Source: Haliotis rufescens (taxonomy: Eukaryota). Taken from it: a stretch of 64,000 nucleotides of DNA. The stretch spans positions 31,930,001 to 31,994,000 of the forward strand of contig NW_025964372.1 of assembly GCF_023055435.1 (NCBI RefSeq), read 5' to 3'. Below the pieces are notes generated by a model. It was not told the DNA's origin, made no database searches, and worked only from the letters and a program-made list of their open reading frames with translations. Shown piece by piece: positions 1-60,120 of this stretch. The stretch's first letter is position 1. Each line of letters starts with the position of its first letter. Made by a program: the position numbers and the translations under genes.

Positions 1-229
1 CACTGGTTCTAGATTATCAGTGCACATAACCACTGGTTCTAGATTATCAGGACACATGACCACCGGTTCTAGATTATCAGGACACATGACCACTGGTTCT
101 AGATTATCAGTGCACATAACCACTGGTTCTAGATTATCAGGACACATGACCACTGGTTCTAGATTATCCGGACACATGACCACTGGTTCTAAGTTATCAG
201 GGCACATGACCACTGGTTCTAGATTATGA
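1..229. repeat. 30-bp tandem array (CACTGGTTCTAGATTATCAGGACACATGAC) in a SelJ intron
   Basis: About 7.5 visible units; the array runs off the window start. Confidence 0.95.
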
Positions 230-574
230 GGTAGAACACTACCTAGGAGATTCCTGGTTTGAAATAGGTCCCCAGCAACCTATACTTGTTGTTTTAAGTC
301 AGCTTAAAGAATCAGGTGGTCCAGCTCTGATACATGGTTCATTAAGTTTCAAATAAATAAAATAAAATAAATCAGATTGTATTTGTTACCACTGGATAAA
401 ACTGGCAGGACATGTATGACCTATACTCAGGTGACACAATGTAACTAACCACAGCACACACCAGCACCCACTCACCTCACATTAGAAAAGTTGAATCATT
501 AAATAAACGCAAGAACCTAGTGTACATCGATGTTCAATGATAGATTGCATCATGTGACATGACCCTGTTTCCAG

Positions 575-1180
575 ATTTGCCAGGGGCCCTCCAGTCGGCC
601 CTGCACGGCGTGTTGACGGGTACCGATTACGTCGGCGCTGTCCACGCCACCATGAGAGTAGGAGGCTGCAATGCTTCACGTGGAGGATTCATTGCAGCGT
701 GTTTTGCAGCACAGGTGAATAGTTGTGAATGTGGCCTTCTTTACCTGATGATTTCAATTTTTTTACTCTTCTGGAATTTCGCTTTGTAGGTTTCAAAATT
801 GACATTTTTCTCAATGCTAATTTTGAAAATCATGGCATTCAACTTGGCACAATTCATTATGCAATATGCTTGATCAATAATAAAAAGAACAACTTTGATC
901 AAGATTTCTCTCTTTGGGTAGAGAGTTACATTACTTTACTTGATAGACGACTAGTGACTTTATTGGGATATGGAAGGTACACTTGGTATCACAAGAAGAG
1001 GCGTGGTCTGTTTGAGACAGTTTAATTTTTTTTATCTGAAATCAGTTTAGCATTTTTCTTAATTTTTGTTTCACGCAGAATGGACTGAGCAGCATCCCAG
1101 ATTCTTGGAAATCAAGGACCAAGAAATACGAAGAAATTGCGAGTCTTGCTAAAGAGCTGGTTGCCATCCTGCCTTCATAA
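575..1180 (+). CDS. SELENOJ: Selenoprotein J / J1-crystallin-like (ADP-ribosylglycohydrolase family), last two coding exons (575-714, 1079-1180); the 5' part lies upstream of the window
   Basis: Spliced translation is (x)LPGALQSALHGVLTGTDYVGAVHATMRVGGCNASRGGFIAACFAAQ|NGLSSIPDSWKSRTKKYEEIASLAKELVAILPS*. It matches my recollection of the fish SelJ C-terminus (UGLPGAFQAALHGVLT...GGCTCSRGSFIGACLGAQ.GL..IP.SW). Splice sites: ccag|575, 714|gtgaat, cgcag|1079; TAA at 1178-1180. Confidence 0.85.
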
Positions 1181-1789
1181 TCAAACAGAACATCACCATA
1201 GCAACCAGGGAAGCTTGCTTCAACAAGAAGCCAAAACTGAAGATTTTATTTCATACATGTATATTTCTTGAGTACACAGAAGTACCATTTTGATGTATTT
1301 GTGACAAATGGGATAGTTTCTGAATTTCTAATCTTTTATTTATCTGTTGATAAAGGAAAGACACTAACAATGAAAAAGATCAGATGATATATCAGCTTTT
1401 GGAACAAAATATTTACGTCATTTTTAAAATAATGTGTTTGTTATCACGTTTTTGGTTTTATGCAAAGTTATAACGAATATGAAAGTTTTATTCTTCAGCA
1501 GTGTGATAAAAAAAAGTATGTTGCTTCTTTACACAATGTGCTCCAGCCTCTTCAGTACACCAGATGCATTTGATCAGTTATCATTTAAATTCTTAAAATA
1601 TTAACTTTGATTTTTGTTGTGACATCCAGTTATTTTTCTATTCCTCCAAAGATGCCATCTCATTAAAATCAGATCTTAGCGCTCACTACCGGTACACCAA
1701 AGCTATGGGTAGCAGTAGCCTGCACTAAGATCTGATCTTAATAAGATTATCAAAGTTGCGCAGCAAGGCAAATTAAAATAGGATTTAAA

Positions 1790-2419
1790 TTGGGCTGGGA
1801 CGAGTCTGAATTCACTACCCTTGGGCACGCCAGATACCTATGATTGTGGGTTCGAATCCCGGTTCGCCCCGATTATGTTTCAAGGTTTGTCAGCACCATA
1901 CCCGTGCTCGTGGGTTTCACCGAAGTGATAAACATCAGAGACCTGCATCACTTCGGGCTTTCCTCCCACATTAAGCTGACACGCCGCGATATAACTGGAA
2001 TACTGTTAAAAGCGGCGTTAAACCCAACTCACTCACTCACACACTACCCGGGTACCCACCACCCTATTACTCGACCCAACCCGGGTACCCACTGTAGGCC
2101 TCAAGAGATAAGTACAAAATGTCCGATTGGGCATTTTGTTACCTTAGCACTGGCAAAACGTATTTAGATACGTGTATTAAACAATCTGGTCATGCATACA
2201 CTGAAGTTGACTCAAGTTATATATTTATTCAACGATATAAAAAGTCAGAAGGAATGCGAACATTTGTGACTTGTAGTGTAACCAGACAGTTCTAGATACT
2301 TTTTTGTCATTAAACAATATATCACGTGACTAACCACGGGTCCGGGTAGTCCTGTGGGTACCCGAGTCCTACTCAATACCCACAGGACCCGGGTACCCGA
2401 GTTACCCGTCCCAGCCCTA
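1790..2419. mobile_element. hAT-type MITE (TIR TAGGGCTGGGACG) with a nested SINE
   Basis: 8-bp TSD GATTTAAA (1782-1789, 2420-2427); terminal inverted repeats; related partial copy at about 12259-12560. Confidence 0.8.
1818..2040 (+). mobile_element. SINE family B (tRNA head, Meta-like body), 5'-truncated, nested in the hAT MITE
   Basis: B box GGTTCGAATCC; body ending GGCTTTCCTCCCAC; (ACTC)n tail. Confidence 0.85.
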
Positions 2420-2580
2420 GATTTAAATGTTATTTTCTAGTTGTGTCTTGTGTCTTTTGCTTCTGGTAGGAAGAATCTGTGAACAGAAAAATAGAAAATT
2501 GTGGCTGACATTGCACCCCACTGTCGCACATAATATCCCAGTGAAGCATGTGATGGGAGGGTGCCTATTGCCACCCTGCG

Positions 2581-2649
2581 TCAGTCTGTGTATGAAGGAT
2601 CAGCTGTACTTCCATTGGAACGCCTGACCCTGATGTGAGTCAGATGTGA
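2581..2649 (+). promoter_or_regulatory. Candidate type II SECIS element in the SelJ 3' UTR
   Basis: Helix I UCAGUCUG/CAGAUGUGA; core AUGAA (2592-2596) opposite UGAU (2631-2634); helix II GGAUCAGCUG/CGCCUGACCC (2 mismatches); unpaired UAC; apical mini-stem UUCC-AUU-GGAA. It lies downstream of a SelJ-family ORF on the same strand. Confidence 0.6.
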
Positions 2650-3956
2650 TGCTTGGTTACAACTGACACCCTCGGTCACATCATCCCCAAATGTTGCTAA
2701 TCAAGATTTGTTTATATATTGTGTTTTGTTTGTGCGTGTTAAAAATCATGATTTGTACGTGGAGACACGTACGCTGGTCAAATACTGTTTTCCAGTACTC
2801 TTCACATCAAGGAATACATTTATGTAGGGAGGCCCTTTCCAAGGTTGATTGTACACAATTGTTCACAACTGTTTATTTGGTTGGATACTATAGTTTGAAC
2901 AACCAAAACAAAAAAGAAGACCGCTCGCACTATATTTTCTAAAAAACATTGCCTGAGAACCAATTCTTTTATTTTTGTAAGCCTTACAGGGAACTGATTT
3001 GACAAAATGAGTTGCCAATATAGATCCCAGTGTATTGTGCTTACTGAAATCTTGAATAGGACCAAGGTACTAGTGTGCTTTACATTGACATATTGACACT
3101 ACATCATGGTTTATATACACTGTAGGCCAGTCTCTGTTATTTACCAGCTTTGGATGGTTTTATTCTTCAACTGTGATATTTAACTGCTTTAATTCAATAA
3201 TAATGAACTTGTTCTCATCACTATAGAGAGGTAATATTGCCAATGTGATGCAATATTCAACTCATTCACTGTTTGAGTGAGTGAGTTTGGTTTTACACTG
3301 CTTTTAGCAATATTGCAGCAATATCACGGCCAGGGACACCAGAAATGGGCTTCACACATTGTACCCATGTAGGGAATCAAACCCAGGCCTTTGGCATGAC
3401 GAGCAAATGCTTTAACCACGAGGCTTCCCCACTCACTGTTTGAACCAGTGGATGGACTGAAAGCGCCTGTTGGCCTCCAAGAGAATTGATTAAAGTTAAT
3501 ATTGTATGTATTGAAATTATGGAAATAATCCAGTTTATCATTTAACTTAAGCATTTATCCATGACATAAGCTTATGACATAAAAACATGTATGTCATACC
3601 CCAATGACATAAGTATGCAAATTAGATATGCAAATTAGATAACCGGAAGAGCGAGCGGTTTGATTTGAAACTATATATTATAAGTGAAGTTACACCAGAG
3701 ATATAATCAGATTACACAGAATCATTGTTGTTACCGTTATTAAAGTTTCAATTATTCTACAAAAGTCTGTTCAAGTATTTTGTTTAAAATAATCCGAGGA
3801 ACTTTTTTTCTCAGCGAATTGTTTATTTTGGTTTACATGGCTATGGAAAACATGTATCACTAAGCACGATCTATACGTAAGATTTCGACAAGTTGCTGAT
3901 GTTAATGTTTAATGCAATTATTCCCTAATTTGGAAGCAAAAATGTGAAAATGATAA

Positions 3957-4107
3957 ATAGAATTCATCACGAGTGTTTTTTAATATGGGAAATATCAACC
4001 TCGTCCCGTTAATCGGTATTTGCCTCGCCAAAGGCTTGGCAAATACCGATTAACTAAGACTCGGTTGATATTTCCCATATTAAAAAACACTCGTGATGAA
4101 TCCTCTA
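3957..4107. mobile_element. Palindromic MITE (~150 bp hairpin)
   Basis: ATTCATCACGAGTGTTTTTTAATATGGGAAATATCAACC...GGTTGATATTTCCCATATTAAAAAACACTCGTGATGAAT, near-perfect arms. Confidence 0.75.
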
Positions 4108-4530
4108 TGTATGATATAATGTTTTTCGGAACATATAGCAATGTAAAAATGCATTATTTGCTGGTCCACTAGCTACATCAAGATCAAGTGGAGGGTTTTG
4201 TATTTGCTATTTTGTGAATTTGATATGACTGTTATTGGAAAATGAGTATGAAAGCAATATAGTGATTGTTAAAGTCAAATGTTTTTAAATGTTTTGCAAC
4301 AGATAGTATTTTACAATGAAATCACCAAGGGAGGTAACTCTAGTGTGGTTTGTGACTGAAACTAGTCCTTTATAGTCAGTTAACTCTCTTGCCTCAGGAA
4401 GATGGTCATATATCTGTTAAAAACTTCTCTAACTTTTTGTGTGTGACTTCATCTGTGGTAATAAAAAAACTAGTCATCTGAGGTTCTTTTAGCATTCTTA
4501 TTTGAACTATTTATTATTGCACTTATTTGG

Positions 4531-4820
4531 CGACGTGCATGCGTGTGTTTGTGTGTGTCTGCTTGTACTAGACCAGTTTAATGCCGATTTTATAGTGCTA
4601 TCCCACTGAGATACCATGCCGCAGTTTCACATTAATACCCCACTCAGACAGAGTATACTGACTCCGACCCTTTTATATTTAGCCCCTTAATGTGGAATGC
4701 CAGGTGGGAGTACCATCTTTTAATGTCTTTTGGTGTGACGGGGCTGGGGATTGACCTGGGGATTGACCCCAACCTTCCGCTCTCTGGGCAGACGCTCTAC
4801 CACTGGACCACGGAGGTGGT
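4531..4820 (-). mobile_element. SINE family D (tRNA head + V-domain-like core)
   Basis: Reverse copy of 21390-21745. Confidence 0.75.
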
Positions 4821-4845
4821 AAGGGAGGAAAGCCCAAAGTTATGA

Positions 4846-5012
4846 GTGAGTGAGTGTGTATGGTTTTACGCCGCTTTTAGCAATATTTCAGCGATATCAC
4901 GGCGGGGGACACAAGAAATGGGCTTCACACATTGTACCCATGTCGGGAATCGAACCCAGGTCTTCGGCGTGACGAGTGAACGCTTTAACCCCTAGGCTAC
5001 CTGACCGCCCCC
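4846..5012 (-). mobile_element. SINE family A (short tRNA-derived SINE)
   Basis: A/B boxes, (ACTC)n tail, TSD AAAGTTATGA. Other copies at about 3275-3430, 13188-13350, 18627-18722, 20633-20795, 47763-47920, 48924-49085 and 55781-55873. Confidence 0.85.
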
Positions 5013-5816
5013 TAAAGTTATGAAAGTCCTATGCATGTACTACTTAGATGTAACCAATGAGCACAGCTATGGTGCAGACGATTCAGGAAACATAATCAAG
5101 ATGAACCGGAATTTGAACCCAAGGATCGCAGTTCTGCACAGTGATGCACATTGACTTCGACAACTGTGCCACCTCCCCCAATAGAGTATTGACTCTAGGG
5201 TTCTACCCAGAAGAAACCTCCTGTTACATGATATATTAAGTTGATTGTGTTCAAGTTAACGATGTTTCACTGCATATCAGTTTACCCTAATTAAGTGGAC
5301 CCGTGAAGATTCCGGGGTAGAATAGGTCGTCAGCAACCCATGCTTGCCGTAAAAGGTGAAAAGGTCTGAAAAATAATCGAGTCTGGACCAGACAATCCAG
5401 TGATTGACATCATGAGCATCGATCCACACAATTGGGATCGATGACATGCATCAACCAAGTCAGCAAGCCTGATCACCCGATCCCGTTAGTCGTCTCTTAC
5501 GACAAGCATAGTCGCCTTTTACAGCAAGCCACAGACACCTTTGATCATGGGTTGGAATCCTGAGACCTGCCTCAATTCAGGTATTCATCTCACATGCTGA
5601 CACACCGTGATACAACTAAATTTTATTCAAAGTGGCGTTGAAGCAAACTCACTCTGGGTGACCCCGTCCGTAATGTCTGGACAAGATGAACCCGTGGTTG
5701 ATACCATGATCAACTTTTCACTCTGTTAAGGTAAGGTTAGGTGAAATGGGGTTTCATGTCGCATCAAAGATTATTGCACATATATATGTGTGTGCGTGTG
5801 TGTGTGTGGCTGCATG

Positions 5817-6065
5817 TTTGTTTGTTGTTTAACGCCGCACTCAGCAATATTCCAGCTATATGATGTCAGTCTGTAACTAATCCAGTCTGAACCATATAAT
5901 CCAGTGATTGACATCATGAGAACGATCCATGATTGGGATAAGATGACATGCATCAACCATGTCAGCGAGCCTGATCACCCGATCCTGTTAGTCGCCTCTT
6001 ACGACAAGCATAGTCACCTTTTTTACGGTAAGCATGGGTTGCGGAACACTTATTCTACCCCGGAT
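5817..6065 (-). mobile_element. Short retroposon family C (no tRNA head)
   Basis: Copy of the family defined at 26555-26814. Confidence 0.8.
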
Positions 6066-6335
6066 GTGGCTGCTTGTGCTAGTCAGGACTGATGTTGATT
6101 TATAGTGCTAGCCCACTGAGATACCATACCGCAGTTGACATGAATACTCCACTCAGACACAGTATACTGACTCCGAGCAGTCCTTACTTTAGCACCTTAA
6201 TGCGCCAGACAGGGTAACAAGAAGTACCATCTTTTGGTATGATGTGGCCGGGGATCAAACCCCGGACTTCCTGCTCTCCAGGTGGACACTCTACCACTAG
6301 ACTATGGAGGTGGTCACACTCTGTTTAGGGTATAA

Positions 6336-6546
6336 TGAGTGAGTGAGTGAGTTGGGTTTTATGCCGCTTTTAACAGTATTCCAGTTATATCACGGCGTGT
6401 CACCATAATGTGGGAGGAAAGCCCGAAGTGATGCAGGTCTTAGACGTTTACCACTTCGGTGAAACCCACGAGCACAGGTATGGTGCTGACAAACCTAGAA
6501 ACATAATCGGGGCGAACCGGGATTTGAACCCACAATCATAGGTTTA
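6336..6546 (-). mobile_element. SINE family B copy
   Basis: Matches 55086-55365. Confidence 0.8.
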
Positions 6547-6640
6547 GGGTGTAATGATGCACAACCAGCTAGGTCAAGCTGAAACCGCTGAACCCCATTG
6601 TAATCCGTCTTTGATAACCTCAGTGTACTTGCCGCCTATT

Positions 6641-6744
6641 CTGGGCCCACTTGCACAAAGCGATCTTAGCGCTAATATGATCGTAACTCCCATACTTTGA
6701 CATAGGCTTAAGATAGTCTTAGATCGCTTTGTGCAAGTTGGCCA
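6641..6744. mobile_element. Small TIR element (GGCCCACTTGCACAAAGCGATCT...AGATCGCTTTGTGCAAGTTGGCC)
   Basis: Inverted termini; related sequences at about 1670-1765 and 33237-33345. Confidence 0.6.
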
Positions 6745-7633
6745 AGCTGTACCGGAATCTCATCAGAGATGATTTTCTTAAACTTCCCTTTTGAAGCATA
6801 AATGAAACCATCCATAGTCATGTTAATTATCAAGTGTAGAATATTTAATATCTTCATTCTATTATAATAAATACCATGGAACCATTCGCCACCATAGCTT
6901 CATTTCATTTCCCTCCCCTCCATCTCGAACTCAGCACAGAATTTCTCTCTCTCATGAGAATGATTTTATTGGATTGCTATTATTAAAATTGTGCAATCCA
7001 ATCAAGCTCAAAATGAAGCTATGGTTGCATTTGGGTCCATATTTTTCAAAATAGTATGAAGATACACTTGATCATATTGATAATTGATGAAGTGAAAACA
7101 TGCCTGCTTACCAAAGCAAAGTCATCATCATCATCATCATCATCATGTCCAAAAGGTGACTATGCTTGTCGTGAGAGGCAACTAGAGGCAGATGGTCAGG
7201 CTCACTGACCTGATCAATGCATGTCATCTTATCCCAATTGTGTGGGTCGATGCTCATGATATCAATCACTGGATTGTCTGACCCAGACTTGATTATTTAC
7301 AGAGCGCTTGAATATTGCTGAGTGCAGCATTAAACAACTAAACAAACAAATCATCATATCCATGATCAGAAAGCTATCCCATAAAGCAATATCAAAACTA
7401 TAACTACAATAAATCTATGTTGAAGTATTGACTGAGATCACTTTCTGGAATAGGACCCTATGTAAAACTCAAGGGAAAACATAAAAACATACAAGAATCA
7501 ATACATATATAAATGATTTAATAACAAAATGACAGTCAAAAGAACTGCCAATTCATGACACAGTAAGAAATCTTGACACAAGTTGACGGAAGTGGAGCAG
7601 TGATGTGATTAATAATATAAACTGCACGTAACA

Positions 7634-8788
7634 TCAGCTGTCCACAGGCAGACCATCTAGGGGGCAATTCATAGAGGAGTTCTTCAACCACATGTCTATA
7701 CAATTGTCATGGAACACATGATCACAGGGTAAAAATTTCCTGGTCTGTCCCATTTCATAAGGATCCATACACACAGCACAAATCTCACCCGCACTTTCTT
7801 CACCAACAATATCCGTTTTGAAAGACCCAAGGATATCTTCTGCCACAGTTTTAGGTGCCACCGACTCGTCCAATCGCAGAAGAGTTTCATAATCTTCTGG
7901 AGACAGTTCTCGGTGTTGTAGGGAAATGAGCAGAGATATCAAATCGGTTGGCAGGTCATCCGGCACAGCGTCATTATGTAAAGCATGGCTAAGATTCTGC
8001 ACAGGGGCAGACCTGCTCCTATTATTGTTAGTATCGGTATACTGTCGAGAATTTTCAGGTTCACTTTTCCTTGGAGGCATTGGATAATGGAGATGTGCTC
8101 TGTAGGGATCCAATTCCATAGTTTTCATCACTCTGTGATGGACATAAAGTTTCTTTCTTCCATCATTATTCAAAATATTCTTACAGTACTTGTCCTTCAC
8201 CTGTTTGTGAGCTTTTCTTACTTTTCTGTCTCTGTCATCACGCAAATACTTATTTTCTAACCTTTTTCCTTCGTATTTCTGTAAATGTTCAAACGGCGTG
8301 ATTTTCTCCTCCATAGCCAAGTACTCTTGATCAATTTCTTCAAGGAGGCTGTGCACTTCCTGATCATTGATATGAGAAGCTTTTGAAGGCCTTGGAAGAA
8401 GAGACATGTTGAATCCGAGGTCAGACAATTCCATTTTACTCCATTTCTTCTTCTTCTTCTTTTTCTTCTCCTTCTTTGAATCTTTAGTTTCACTCTCACT
8501 GACAACGCTTTTCTGAAACTCCATAACTTCTTCGTGTTTTTCCACCAGTCTCAGTTTTCTGTTTGCTTTCTTCTCTTTGAGTGAAAGTTTCCTGAGAGGC
8601 ATCTCAGGTGGTTGGCAGAAGATGTCCTCAAATCTGATTTCATCAACAGGAGAAGTATTCTCGGAACGGTCAGCCGAACTTTCAGAAGGCATTGACACGG
8701 ATCTTCTAAAATGGCTGAATGGCACATTTCTCTCGAACCCGTTTGAAGTTCTAGGCCAGTCTACACTGCCTTCCGCAAATGACAGCAT
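7634..8788 (-). CDS. Intronless RING-H2 finger protein (putative E3 ubiquitin ligase; C-terminus resembles the ZSWIM2-type LQxRE(L/I)xPEDY.LL.LD + RING region), about 384 aa
   Basis: Uninterrupted ORF; first ATG at 8788 (MLSFAEGS...). C-terminal CAVC-x14-LPCDHVFHDNCIDMWL-x6-CPLD is a RING-H2 with the last ligand Asp. Lys-rich NLS-like stretch in the middle. Confidence 0.85.
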   Translation of the reverse strand: MLSFAEGSVDWPRTSNGFERNVPFSHFRRSVSMPSESSADRSENTSPVDEIRFEDIFCQPPEMPLRKLSLKEKKANRKLRLVEKHEEVMEFQKSVVSESETKDSKKEKKKKKKKKWSKMELSDLGFNMSLLPRPSKASHINDQEVHSLLEEIDQEYLAMEEKITPFEHLQKYEGKRLENKYLRDDRDRKVRKAHKQVKDKYCKNILNNDGRKKLYVHHRVMKTMELDPYRAHLHYPMPPRKSEPENSRQYTDTNNNRSRSAPVQNLSHALHNDAVPDDLPTDLISLLISLQHRELSPEDYETLLRLDESVAPKTVAEDILGSFKTDIVGEESAGEICAVCMDPYEMGQTRKFLPCDHVFHDNCIDMWLKNSSMNCPLDGLPVDS

Positions 8789-8889
8789 CCTTAAACTTAA
8801 TGTACGGTGCCTTTGAACAATCTCTGTTCTAGCGGAATGTATTTTCGGACCTTGGCGTCCGCCAAGAGGCGTGAAAATGACCAAAAATC

Positions 8890-37296: not shown

Positions 37297-40200
37297 GGTT
37301 GGATCTTGGAAGTGTTGGGTGGTCACATGTGATGGTCTGGTGTGTTGGACTGGGAGGCGTTGGGTGGTTACACGTGTGGATCTGGTGTGTTGGACTGGGA
37401 GGTGTTGGGTGGTCACATGTGATGGTCTGGTGTGTTGGACTGGGAGGCGTTGGGTGGTCACATGTGATGATCTGGTGTGTTGGACTGGGAAGTGTTGGGT
37501 GGTCACATGTGATGATCTGGTGTGTTGGACTGGGAGGCGTTGGGTGGTCACATGTGATGATCTGGTGTGTTGGACTGGTAAGTGTTGGGTTGTCACATGT
37601 GATGATCTGGTGTGTTGGACTGGGAAGTGTTGGGTGGTCACATGTGATGATCTGGTGTGTTGGACTGGGAAGTGTTGGGTGGTCACATGTGATGATCTGG
37701 TGTGTTGGACTGGGAGGTGTTGGGTGGTCACACGTGAGGATCTGGTGTGTTGGACTGGGAGGCGTTGGGTGGTCACACGTGTGGATCTGGTGTGTTGGAC
37801 TGGGAAGTGTTGGGTGGTCACATGTGATGATCTGGTGTGTTGGACTGGGAGGTGTTGGGTGGTCACATGTGATGATCTGGTGTGTTGGACTGGGAAGTGT
37901 TGGGTGGTCACAAGTAAGGATCTGGTGTGTTGGACTGAGAGGTGTTGGGTGGCCACACTTGATGATCTGGTGTGTTGGACTGGGAAGTGTTGGGTGGTAA
38001 CACTTGTGGATTTGGTGTGTTGGACTGGGAAGTGTTGGGTGGTCACACTTGTGGATATGGTGTGTTGGACTGGGAGGTGTTGGGTGGTCACACGTGAGGA
38101 TCTGGTGTGTTGGACTGAGAGGCATTAGGTGGTCACACGTGTGGATCTGGTGTGTTGGACTGGGAAGTGTTGGGTGGTCACACTTGATGATCTGGTGTGT
38201 TGGACTGAGAGGCTTTGGGTGGTCACACATGTGGATCTGGTGTGTTGGACTGGGAGGTGTTGGTTGGTCACATGTGAGGATATGGTGTGTTGGACTGGGA
38301 AGTGTTGGGTGGTCACATGTGATGATCTGGTGTGTTGGACTGGGAGGTGTTGGGTGGTCACACGTGAGGATCTGGTGTGTTGGACTGAGAGGCGTTGGGT
38401 GGTCACACGTGTGGATCTAGTGTGTTGGACTGGGAAGTGTTGGGTGGTCACACTTGATGATCTGGTGTGTTGGACTGAGAGGCTTTGGGTGGTCACACAT
38501 GTGGATCTGGTGTGTTGGACTGGGAGGCGTTGGGTGATCACACGTGTGGATCTGGTGTGTTGGACTGGGAAGTGTTAGGTGGTCACACGTAAGGATCTGG
38601 TGTGTTGGACTGGGAGGTGTTGGGTCGTCACATGTGATGATCTGGTGTGTTGGACTGGGAAGTGTTGGGTGGTCACACGTGAGGATCTGCTGTGTTGGAC
38701 TGGGAGGCGTTGGGTGATCACACGTGTGGATCTGGTGTGTTGGACTGGGAAGTGTTAGGTGGTCACACGTAAGGATCTGGTGTGTTGGACTGGGAGGTGT
38801 TGGGTCGTCACATGTGATGATCTGGTGTGTTGGACTGGGAAGTGTTGGGTGGTCACACGTGAGGATCTGCTGTGTTGGATCTGGGAAGTGTTGGGTGGTC
38901 ACACGTGAGGATATGGTGTGTTGGATCTGGGAAGTGTTGGGTGGTCACACGTGATGATCTGGTGTGTTGGATCTGGGAAGTGTTGGGTGGTCACACGTGA
39001 GGATATGGTGTGTTGGACTGGGAGGTGTTGGGTGGTCACACGTGAGGATCTGCTGTGTTGGACTGGGAAGTGTTGGGTGGTCACACGTGTGGATCTGGTG
39101 TGTTGGACTGGGAAATGTTGGGTGGTCACACGTAAGGATCTGTTGTCTTGGACTTGGAGGTGTTGGGTGGTCACATGTGATGATCTGGTGTGTTGGACTG
39201 GGAAGTGTTGGGTGGTCACACTTGATGATCTGGTGTGTTGGACTGAAAGGTGTTAGGTGGCCACACTTGATGATCTGGTGTGTTGGACTGGGAAGTGTTG
39301 GGTGGTCACACTTGTGGATATGGTGTGTTGGACTGGGAGGTGTTGGGTGGCCACACTTGATGATCTGGTGTGTTGGACTGAGAGGTGTTGGGTGGCCACA
39401 TGTGATTATCTGGTGTGTTGGACTGGGAGGTGTTGGGTGGTCACACGTGAGGATCTGGTGTGTTGGACTGGGAAGTGTTGGGTGGTTACACTTGTGGATA
39501 TGGTGTGTTGGCCTGGGAAGTGTTGGGTGGTCACAAGTGAGGATCTGGTGTGTTGGACTGGGAGGTGTTGGGTGGTCACACTTGATGATCTGGTGTGTTG
39601 GACTGAAAGGTGTTGGGTGGCCACACTTGATGATCTGGTGTGTTGGACTGGGAAGTGTTGGGTGGTCACACTTGTGGATATGGTGTGTTGGACTGGGAGG
39701 TGTTGGGTGGCCACACTTGATGATCTGGTGTGTTGGACTGAGAGGTGTTGGGTGGCCACATGTGATTATCTGGTGTGTTGGACTGGGAAGTGTTGGGTGG
39801 TCACATGTGATGATCTGGTGTGTTGGACTGGGAGGTGTTGGGTGGTCACAAGTGAGGATCTGGTGTGTTGGACTGGGAAGTGTTGGGTGGCCACACTTGA
39901 TGATCTGGTGTGTTGGACTGAAAGGTGTTGGGTGGCCACACTTGATGATCTGGTGTGTTGGACTGGGAAGTGTTGGGTGGTCACACTTGTGGATATGGTG
40001 TGTTGGACTGGGAGGTGTTGGGTGGCCACACTTGATGATCTGGGGTGTTGGACTGAGAGGTGTTGGGTGGCCACATGTGATTATCTGGTGTGTTGGACTG
40101 GGAGGTGTTGGGTGGTCACACGTGAGGATCTGGTGTGTTGGACTGGGAAGTGTTGGGTGGTCACACTTGTGGATATGGTGTGTTGGACTGGGAAGTGTTG

Positions 40201-57589: not shown

Positions 57590-60120
57590 TGCTGACTACA
57601 GTCCAATGTCATATACCTATAACTCTCATATTGTTGACTACAGACCAATGTCATATACCTATTACTATTATATCGTTGACTACAGGCCAATGTCATATAC
57701 CTATAACTCTCATATCGTTGACTACAGGCCAATGTCATATACCTATAACTCTCATATCGTTGACTACAGGCCAATGTCATATACCTACAACTATTATATC
57801 GTTGACTACAGACCAATGTCATATACCTATAACTATCATATCGTTGACTACAGGCCAATGTCATACACCTATAACTATCATATCGTTGACTACAGACCAA
57901 TGTCATATACCTATAACTCTCATATTGTTGACTACAGACCAATGTCATATACCTATAACTATCATATCGCTGACTACAGGCCAATGTCATATACCTATAA
58001 CTATCATATCGTTGACTACAGGCCAATGTCATTTACCTACAACTATTATATCGTTGACTACAGGCCAATGTCATATACCTATAACTATCATATCGTTGAC
58101 TACAGGCCAATGTCATATACCTATAACTATCATATCTTTGAGTACAGGCCAATGTCATATACCTATAAATATCATATCGTTGACTACAGGCCAATGTCAT
58201 ATACCTACAACTATTATATCGTTGACTACAGACCGGTGTCATATACCTATCACTCTCATATCCTCAACTACAGGCCAATGTCATATACCTATAACTCTCA
58301 TATCGTTGACTACAGACCAATGTCATATACCTATAACTCTCATATCATTGACTACAGACCAATGTCATATACTTATTACTATTATATCGTTGACTACAGG
58401 CCAATGTCATATACCTATAACTCTCATATCGTTGACTACAGGCCAATGCCATATACCTATAACTCTCATATCGTTGACTACAGACCAATGTCATATACCT
58501 ATAAATATCATATCGTTGACTACAGACCAATTCATATACCTATAACTATCATATCGTTGACTACAGACCAATGTCATATACCTATAACTATCATATCGTT
58601 GACTACAGGCCAATGTCATATACCTATAACTATCATATCGTTGACTACAGACCAATGTCATATACCTATAACTCTCATATCGTTGACTACAGGCCAATGT
58701 CATATACCTATAACTCTCATATTGTTGACTGCAGACCGGTGTCATATACCTATCACTCTCATATCGTTGACTACAGACCAATGTCATATACCTATAACTC
58801 TCATATCGTTGACTACAGACCAATGTAATATACCTATAACTATCATATCGTTGACTACAGACCAATGTCATATACCTATAACTCTCATATCGTTGACTAC
58901 AGGCCAATGTCATTTACCTACAACTATTATATCGTTGACTACAGACCGGTGTCATATACCTATCACTCTCATATCCTCAACTACAGGCCAATGTCATATA
59001 CCTATAACTATCATATCGTTGACTACAGACCAATGTCATATACCTATAACTACCATATCGTTGACTACAGGCCAATGTCATATACCTATAACTCTCATAT
59101 CGTTGACTACAGACCAATGTAATATACCTATAACTATCATATCGTTGACTACAGACCAATGTCATATACCTATAACTCTCATATCGTTGACTACAGGCCA
59201 ATGTCATATACCTATAACTATCATATCGTTGACTTCAGGCCAATGTCATATACCTATAACTATCATATCATTGACTACAGACCAATGTCATATACCTATA
59301 ACTCTCATATCGTTGACTACAGGCCAATGTCATATACCTACAAGTATTATATCGTTGACTGCAGGCCAATGTCATATACCTACAACTATTATATCGTCAA
59401 GTACAGACCAATGTCATATACCTATAACTCTCATATCGTTGACTACAGACCAATGTAATATACCTATAACTATCATATCGTTGACTACAGACCAATGTCA
59501 TATACCTATAACTCTCATATCGTTGACTACAGGCCAATGTCATATACCTACAACTATTATATCGTTGACTACAGACCAATGTCATATACCTATAACTATC
59601 ATATCGTTGACTACAGACCGGTGTCATATACCTATCACTCTCATATCCTCAACTACAGGCCAATGTCATATACCTATAACTCTCATATCGTTGACTACAG
59701 ACCAATGTCATATACCTATAACTCTCATATCGTTGACTACAGGCCAATGTCATATACCTACAAGTATTATATCGTTGACTGCAGGCCAATGTCATATACC
59801 TACAACTATTATATCGTCAAGTACAGACCAATGTCATATACCTATAACTCTCATATCGTTGACTACAGACCAATGTAATATACCTATAACTATCATATCG
59901 TTGACTACAGACCAATGTCATATACCTATAACTATCATATCGTTGACTACAGACCAATGTCATATACCTATAACTCTCATATCGTTGACTACAGGCCAAT
60001 GTCATATACCTATAACTATCATATCGTTGACTACAGGCCAGTGTCATTTATTTGTTACTATCATATCGTTGACTACAGGCCAATGTCATATACCTGTATA
60101 ATTGCTGACTACAGACCGAT
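57590..60120. repeat. 42-bp minisatellite (CCAATGTCATATACCTATAACTATCATATCGTTGACTACAGG), about 60 units
   Basis: Directly visible; 420-bp higher-order duplication (59281 vs 59701). Confidence 0.98.

Follow-up and report, generated by a model that had tools for sequence, protein, structure and literature searches.

A likely SelJ selenoprotein gene in the abalone Haliotis rufescens with a candidate type II SECIS element, a variant whose apex lacks AA

The window analyzed here, i.e., the whole stretch of 64,000 nucleotides from Haliotis rufescens contig NW_025964372.1, opens with the 3' end of a SelJ-family gene located on the forward strand. The second-last coding exon of this gene (575..714, +) has AG/GT borders and comes after a phase-1 intron, which contains 7.7 copies of a 30-nt tandem unit (window positions 1-231); the exon sequence runs xAT and then LPGALQSALHG. 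The last intron (715..1078, +; GT..AG) separates it from the last coding exon (1079..1180, +), which was identified by translation and BLASTP comparison to homologues and comprises 33 codons plus a TAA stop (1178-1180). The 3' UTR (1181..3563, +), as deduced from contig pieces and a signal scan downstream of the stop, in which ATTAAA is found at 3489 and the first AATAAA at 4460, contains high-copy repeats. These repeats, at approximately 1640-2420, 2770-2950 and 3210-3430, attain contig depths of up to 1.6 million. Further downstream, a long near-perfect inverted repeat (3968-4096) with sub-threshold matches to plant microRNAs is probably a small transposon. A convergent RING-H2 gene (7634..8887, -) follows, being a single open frame with a Pfam RING match that is conserved across molluscs and whose product is 96% identical to that of a Haliotis cracherodii cluster, 82% to that of H. 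rubra and 79% to that of H. asinina. In these three Haliotis species the RING orthologue and the SelJ-like models are found on contigs of equal length, from which the SelJ-RING locus was judged to be syntenic. In Mactra, the RING orthologue is found at a locus number 16 away from the SelJ model, which hints at an old linkage.

The assignment of the gene to the SelJ family, as originally predicted, is substantiated by a match of exon 575-714 to Pfam PF03747, with an E value of 1.7e-4 over positions 233-277 of the 287-position profile, and by 61-78% identity of this exon to the top-matching SelJ-like models from molluscs and fishes. Profile and homologue comparison place its product in the ADP-ribosylglycohydrolase fold family, in the subfamily that includes the jellyfish J1-crystallins. 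The aspartates of the acidic GGD-x-D motif, present in solved ADP-ribosylglycohydrolases, have a role in the ordinary metal-dependent hydrolase activity of these enzymes; SelJ-family proteins read GGCNAS or GGNCS at this point (window 661-681; P0025), and it is therefore doubtful that they possess such an activity.

Since exon 575-714 opens with AT and LPG codons after a phase-1 intron, the codon for selenocysteine (Sec) or Cys would end one base short of the end of the previous exon, i.e., outside the window, and the identity of this codon was approached through relatives. A metagenome scan returned nine SelJ loci (L001-L009), five of which are intron-free and uninterrupted, while L006-L009 are interrupted and distant and were left out at the Sec site. 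All five intron-free contigs carry TGA in the Sec column followed by an in-frame xLPG-type sequence, L003 reads TGA CAT TTG in agreement with the AT TTG of the window, and exon 575-714 shares 26-33 of 46 residues with these TGA-type relatives (L001-L005). Coding conservation between the window exons and the relatives is present after the Sec site. In L003, a frame shift at the last-exon-junction position (approximately 1075-1160) places the final exon out of frame and is likely to be an assembly slip.

Of 124 family proteins aligned at the Sec column, 49 stop no more than one residue short of it, nine carry Cys, five end earlier and 61 belong to other classes; the latter include 23 fish models that, as judged by eye, end at the same place, while many of the others skip the segment. 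One SelJ protein (P0109) carries Trp in this column, reflecting either a TGA-to-TGG change or an assembly error. Some sea-slug models are already named selenoprotein J in databases.

Abalones possess two SelJ-type copies, one of which is of the Cys type and the other annotated as short. The Cys-type paralogue (322 aa, with Cys before an xVPG motif) is intact in four abalone species, and its representatives are 93-98% alike over exon 575-714 in the four pairs compared. The window exon shares just 23-24 of 46 residues with these paralogues, as opposed to >90% among the Haliotis Cys forms, and its identification as the Cys paralogue was therefore rejected. The other copy is represented in four abalone species by models of 258-263 aa (XP_046333134, XP_046577997, XP_067661914 and XP_071096602), each of which has FRKD as its last residues, immediately ahead of the Cys column. 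When the window exon was searched for among longer proteins, no abalone protein was found and one of fifteen candidates matched, this being a snail model that skips the site (a weak blank). As the window exon is unlike the Cys paralogue and no longer abalone protein containing it was found, the window exons would most simply represent the missing end of the FRKD-type gene.

The TGA of all five relatives and the common FRKD terminus of the four abalone models are in accordance with the prediction that an in-frame UGA immediately precedes the xAT-LPG codons, and it can be stated with high confidence, from the orthologues, that the abalone gene would carry UGA at the Sec position, one exon upstream of the window. 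It had also been suggested that annotation pipelines may miss the gene or truncate it as 'crystallin J1-like'; truncation, as 'crystallin J1A-like', is supported by the four abalone models. In Aplysia, Ylistrum and Haliotis, Cys-type copies accompany truncated models that are likely to be of the Sec type (P0015/P0056, P0115/P0041, P0025/P0039, P0040, P0124), and Cys forms also occur in Patella and the land snail Bradybaena within the same protein list. The distribution of these forms suggests that several independent Sec-to-Cys changes may have taken place in molluscs.

Transcription of the locus was assessed using unstranded contigs from four runs of four studies, the run type being guessed as probable RNA. 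Both exons are covered in all four runs and depth is zero over positions 795-1004 of the last intron, indicating that the runs behave as spliced RNA. Contig pieces cover 1076-1847, 2391-2769, 2955-3317 and 3355-3563 of the tail, while no contig from the four runs spans 1818-2420, where repeats lie between the stop and the hairpin described below. Depth over the whole or most of 2391-2769 amounts to 12, 14.6, 156.8 and 24.9 in the four runs, and that of the last-exon contig to 16.6, 13.7, 146.1 and 14.9; the former thus tracks the latter, which is a weak hint. The hairpin is accordingly present in transcript-type contigs of all four runs, as had been expected of an element of the mRNA, by way of unstranded pieces with no bridge to the stop.

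The candidate type II SECIS (2578..2652, +, including helix I) was recognized by sequence, fold and descriptor. Its AUGA starts 1411 nt past the TAA, compared to a stop-to-SECIS distance of 84-513 nt in three relatives (L001, L003 and L005), and the high-copy repeats in the tail account for much of this distance. The 5' side of the core reads AUGAA (2592..2596, +), of which AUGA is invariant in the alignment with the three relatives, and the 3' side reads UGAU (2631..2634, +), which fits KGAW. The sequence therefore contains a purine-led UGAN/KGAW quartet, from which tandem G.A pairs would be expected. The 5' arm of helix II (2597..2607, +) pairs with 2620-2630, resulting in a helix of 11 positions with two separated mismatches (A2599.C2628 and C2604.C2623), within the 10-13 positions and at most two mismatches of type II elements; the nine paired positions exhibit probabilities of 0.82-1.00, or 0.76-0.92 in a 200-nt context. 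A mini-stem, UCC/GGA with an AUU loop (2611..2619, +; 2611-2613 with 2617-2619), is predicted in approximately 45% of the ensemble, the predicted alternative being that C2609 and U2610 pair with G2618 and G2617. Helix I consists of 5 bp (2584-2588 with 2641-2645), to which a further 6 bp can be added beyond a single bulge (2578-2583 with 2647-2652), and 6-8.5 bp are expected in context folds. The predicted hairpin with SECIS geometry some 1.4 kb past the stop, with its helix I, AUGA/GA core, helix II and mini-stem, is thus present in all its parts.

When folded in context, the element has a core no less accessible than that of the three relatives (opening cost of 0.8-1.0 versus 0.2-1.8 kcal/mol). 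Helix I faces competition from an 8-bp helix (2631-2638/2676-2683), and its own probability is 0.26-0.31 in one 200-nt fold. Two hairpins overlap the candidate, one on either side (2541-2596 and 2631-2683), and would compete with its core or its helix I.

The apex had been described as an unpaired UAC in place of the usual AA. Its lack of AA was confirmed, as the dinucleotides at helix II to apex lengths of 10-13 are UA, AC, CU and UU, with no AA, AG or CC among them. Of the two possible registers, ACU (-8.8 kcal/mol) was preferred to UAC (-8.0 kcal/mol), which is less stable by just 0.8 kcal/mol; the minimum-energy form (-9.1 kcal/mol) has A2608 opposite A2619. U2607 pairs with A2620 at a probability of 0.83, A2608 is unpaired at 1.00 and C2609 is unpaired only about half the time. 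The fold ensemble and the alignment with L001, L003 and L005 therefore favour ACU (2608..2610, +) as the apical residues. In these three relatives AAA begins 12 nt after AUGA, and A2608 is found at the same spacing in the window, which implies that one conserved A has been kept and that the apex is less exotic than a wholly non-canonical UAC. As judged from these alignments, it is likely that AAA gave way to ACU at the apex within the abalone lineage, with retention of the first A, and the change is not one shared across the family. One contig is identical to the window over 2391-2769, which excludes an assembly error as the source of AC, while another differs over this interval only at 2533 and 2554.

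Model-based scans supported the candidate in part. In a 141-nt scan, the Rfam SECIS_1 model (RF00031) was the top of six listed matches (18.4 bits, E 0.25 over 4227 families; match at 2584-2645). Its score falls below the gathering cut-off of 35 bits and the model skipped the apex, while all SECISearch1 patterns fail on the element. The AAA-type elements of L001, L003 and L005 also score below 35 bits (23.3, 28.1 and 24.6, respectively). By our own arithmetic, an 18.4-bit match corresponds to approximately 5e-4 for one family on one strand of a 2.4-kb tail. SECIS_1 was not among the matches listed in Rfam scans of 1-6000 and 1181-3570; since the AAA element of L005 was likewise lost in a 7.9-kb scan, such long-scan blanks are no proof against other elements. 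The short tails of L002 and L004 returned no SECIS.

An apex-blind descriptor, which is passed by the elements of all three relatives, returned a single match in 1181-3570, i.e., the element at 2592, and two matches on both strands of the 64-kb window, while 4 of 1000 dinucleotide shuffles matched; the limit of two defects in helix II was chosen once the window element was known, the relatives having one. A looser descriptor gave 62 matches in the window, many of them in tandem arrays, and missed L003. These arrays, at approximately 37400-40000 and 57600-59300, are rich in TGATGA/ATGATA and generate dozens of false SECIS-like matches in loose scans. The folding energy of the element is at chance level when compared to shuffles (z -1.27, 21 of 200 as good).

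Variation contributed little to the assessment of the hairpin. None of the seven listed variable sites of 2460-2769 fall within 2555-2672, which is not significant, and the list leaves out a single substitution in organism B as well as one substitution and eight gap positions in C. Both organisms are approximately 97% identical, too close for covariation to show, while the distant relatives share the SECIS geometry with no alignable stem sequence; the MAFFT alignment of the three relatives misaligned their 3' arms.

Taken together, we consider it probable, with good confidence, that the hairpin at 2578-2652 is the SECIS of the abalone SelJ gene and would recode the in-frame UGA deduced upstream as selenocysteine. 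The gene is thus likely to encode a SelJ selenoprotein by means of a variant type II SECIS; an apex that lacks AA, AG or CC leads us to file the element as a variant rather than as a standard type II member. The UGA of the orthologues, the parts of the hairpin and the apex without AA all point the same way as the original proposal of UGA recoding through an atypical SECIS, which at the level of sequence is supported. In such a scheme, the UGA would lie approximately 1.65 kb ahead of the element in the spliced mRNA. What is established for other SECIS elements would predict that the tandem G.A core folds into a kink-turn to which SBP2 or SBP2L binds, and that helix II positions the apex at the right distance for contact with eEFSec carrying Sec-tRNA. 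The altered apex and the two helix II mismatches imply that the element may be weak and that low readthrough is plausible; a mixture of full-length (approximately 344 aa) and shortened product would be a guess. As to the broader claim that the abalone element is natural and working with AC as a third kind of apex besides AA/AG and CC, we lean only slightly in its favour.

An alternative would be a decaying SECIS, whereby the abalone SelJ is losing Sec, the Cys paralogue is taking over and UGA mostly terminates. An apex that has moved away from AA, two mismatches in helix II, repeats inserted in the tail and an intact Cys paralogue in four abalone species would all fit such a process. However, the exons downstream of the UGA remain intact and spliced, with 65-78% identity to their nearest mollusc homologues, and the single coding change listed for organisms B and C (position 1141) is synonymous. 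Furthermore, a product ending in FRKD would lose the last part of the PF03747 domain, and the truncation point is common to four abalone species. We therefore regard decay as unlikely.

Marginally less likely still is that the gene encodes Sec but that another element of the tail (2541-2596, 2994 or 3007) performs the recoding, with the hairpin at 2592 being incidental. The most conspicuous of these is an overlapping hairpin (2541..2596, +) with a GUGA core, 49-nt spacing and a 3-nt stem bulge, whose formation and that of the candidate core are mutually exclusive. The loosest SECISearch pattern (Loose+) was re-implemented with the published energy cut-offs applied; 2541, 2994 and 3007, all in covered tail, pass both with an AG apex, while 2592 fails. 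The pattern is very permissive, with 15 AR-type matches in 1181-7630 (6.4 kb), six of them within the energy limits. The stem at 2541 has a folding energy of -16.4 kcal/mol, and the change T2554C, seen in three of the four runs, would convert a U.G pair of this stem to C-G and strengthen it. Against this, none of the three has an Rfam SECIS match in 141-nt scans. The 2541 hairpin has G before UGA, its 3-nt bulge exceeds the SECISearch3 bending limit of 2, its spacing compares to 34-37 nt in the relatives and its AG apex is predicted to be partly paired; helix II of 2994 is not formed (probability 0.01) and the stem of 3007 is offset from its core. That the 2541 hairpin acts as a switch tuning readthrough of the candidate is similarly improbable.

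Least likely of all, a Cys or ordinary codon at the Sec position, or a covered region that is the tail of the RING gene, would make the hairpin a chance look-alike: the codon lies outside the window, the contigs are unstranded, loose descriptors match often and the Sec column has Trp in one relative and Cys in nine, yet no full-length abalone protein with the exon was found, the apex-blind descriptor rarely matches shuffled sequence, the RING stop is 5 kb away and the depth of the element follows that of the SelJ exons, albeit as a weak hint from four runs.

Should the candidate SECIS be the functional element, a single unpaired A at a fixed distance from the core would suffice, and the abalone gene would offer a naturally occurring means of probing which apical features eEFSec recognizes; an AC apex in a gene with AAA relatives represents a ready-made test of the apical adenosines. 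It would also follow that genuine selenoprotein genes of invertebrates escape pattern searches, and that Sec-type SelJ extends across molluscs beside repeatedly evolved Cys copies. An annotation error is also flagged, as SelJ models of abalone and many other molluscs appear to miss the last 80 residues. The gain is incremental, since this type of element, the protein family, apices other than AA and such misannotation are already known. The family range reported in the literature examined leaves molluscs out, and in the same literature nothing was found concerning SelJ of abalone or other molluscs, or concerning an AC apex; Castellano 2005, the founding SelJ paper, and Baclaocos 2019, on mollusc selenoprotein P, may list mollusc SelJ.

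As regards known SelJ systems, the abalone gene shares with SELENOJ its fold family, the Sec/Cys column, the xLPG motif that follows and database truncation at the Sec position. Fewer than 1% of SELENOJ genes are reported to be well annotated in Ensembl (PMC12822975, in excerpt). Ray-finned fishes, sea urchins and amphioxus possess Sec-type SELENOJ and cnidarians have Cys forms of it (PMC13134290, in excerpt), in accordance with the premise that the family is Sec-type in fishes and some invertebrates and Cys-type elsewhere; it is further reported from algae (PMC7539508, in excerpt), while the excerpted text of one survey lists none in the limpet Lottia (PMC3473315). In contrast, molluscs here appear to carry the Sec type widely, and the abalone has a likely Sec-type and a Cys-type copy on the same contig.

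The abalone element has the purine-led core, 11-position helix II, mini-stem and helix I of type II SECIS elements (Rfam RF00031; PMC2647825; PMC3753652, in excerpt), as well as the G-C first pair above the core that is over-represented among them (PMC2647825), and lies within the 3000-nt limit that Seblastian sets for SECIS position (PMC3753652, in excerpt). It departs from them at the apex. The four SECISearch1 patterns, as given in the excerpted PMC3753652, need AA, AR or CC, all of which AC(U) fails, and under the SECISearch3 grading described in the same excerpt it would earn no apex points. On the other hand, the SECISaln consensus calls for a 'run of Ms', i.e., A or C, at a conserved distance (PMC2647825), which A2608-C2609 fits. 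The AC apex is thus a small departure from a known element, given AA, AG and CC in published patterns and A or C in one consensus.

Functional data from other organisms bear on this apex in both directions. In annelid Capitella, SBP2L serves as the SECIS-binding protein (PMC3328465, in excerpt). eEFSec contacts the SECIS apex (PMC11431864, in excerpt), and the apical adenosines are called essential although their exact role is described as unclear (PMC3316567 and PMC11431864, both in excerpt). Deletion of the apical As or an AA-to-TT change abolishes or sharply lowers the activity of mammalian SECIS elements (PMC2761289 and PMC1802603, both in excerpt), which counts against an AC apex, and helix II mismatches are a mark of a weak human element (PMC2761289, in excerpt). 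The closest precedent is the CC apex of mammalian SELENOM and SELENOO, whose CC versions work in mammals (PMC3316567, in excerpt) and which bears out the premise that non-AA apices exist; CC is also found in TXNRD3 (PMC2761289, in excerpt). The abalone element resembles these in that its apical adenosines have been replaced in a lineage-specific manner, its SelJ relatives L001, L003 and L005 keeping AAA. As a candidate element it differs from them in belonging to an invertebrate and in replacing only the second and third A while keeping the first.
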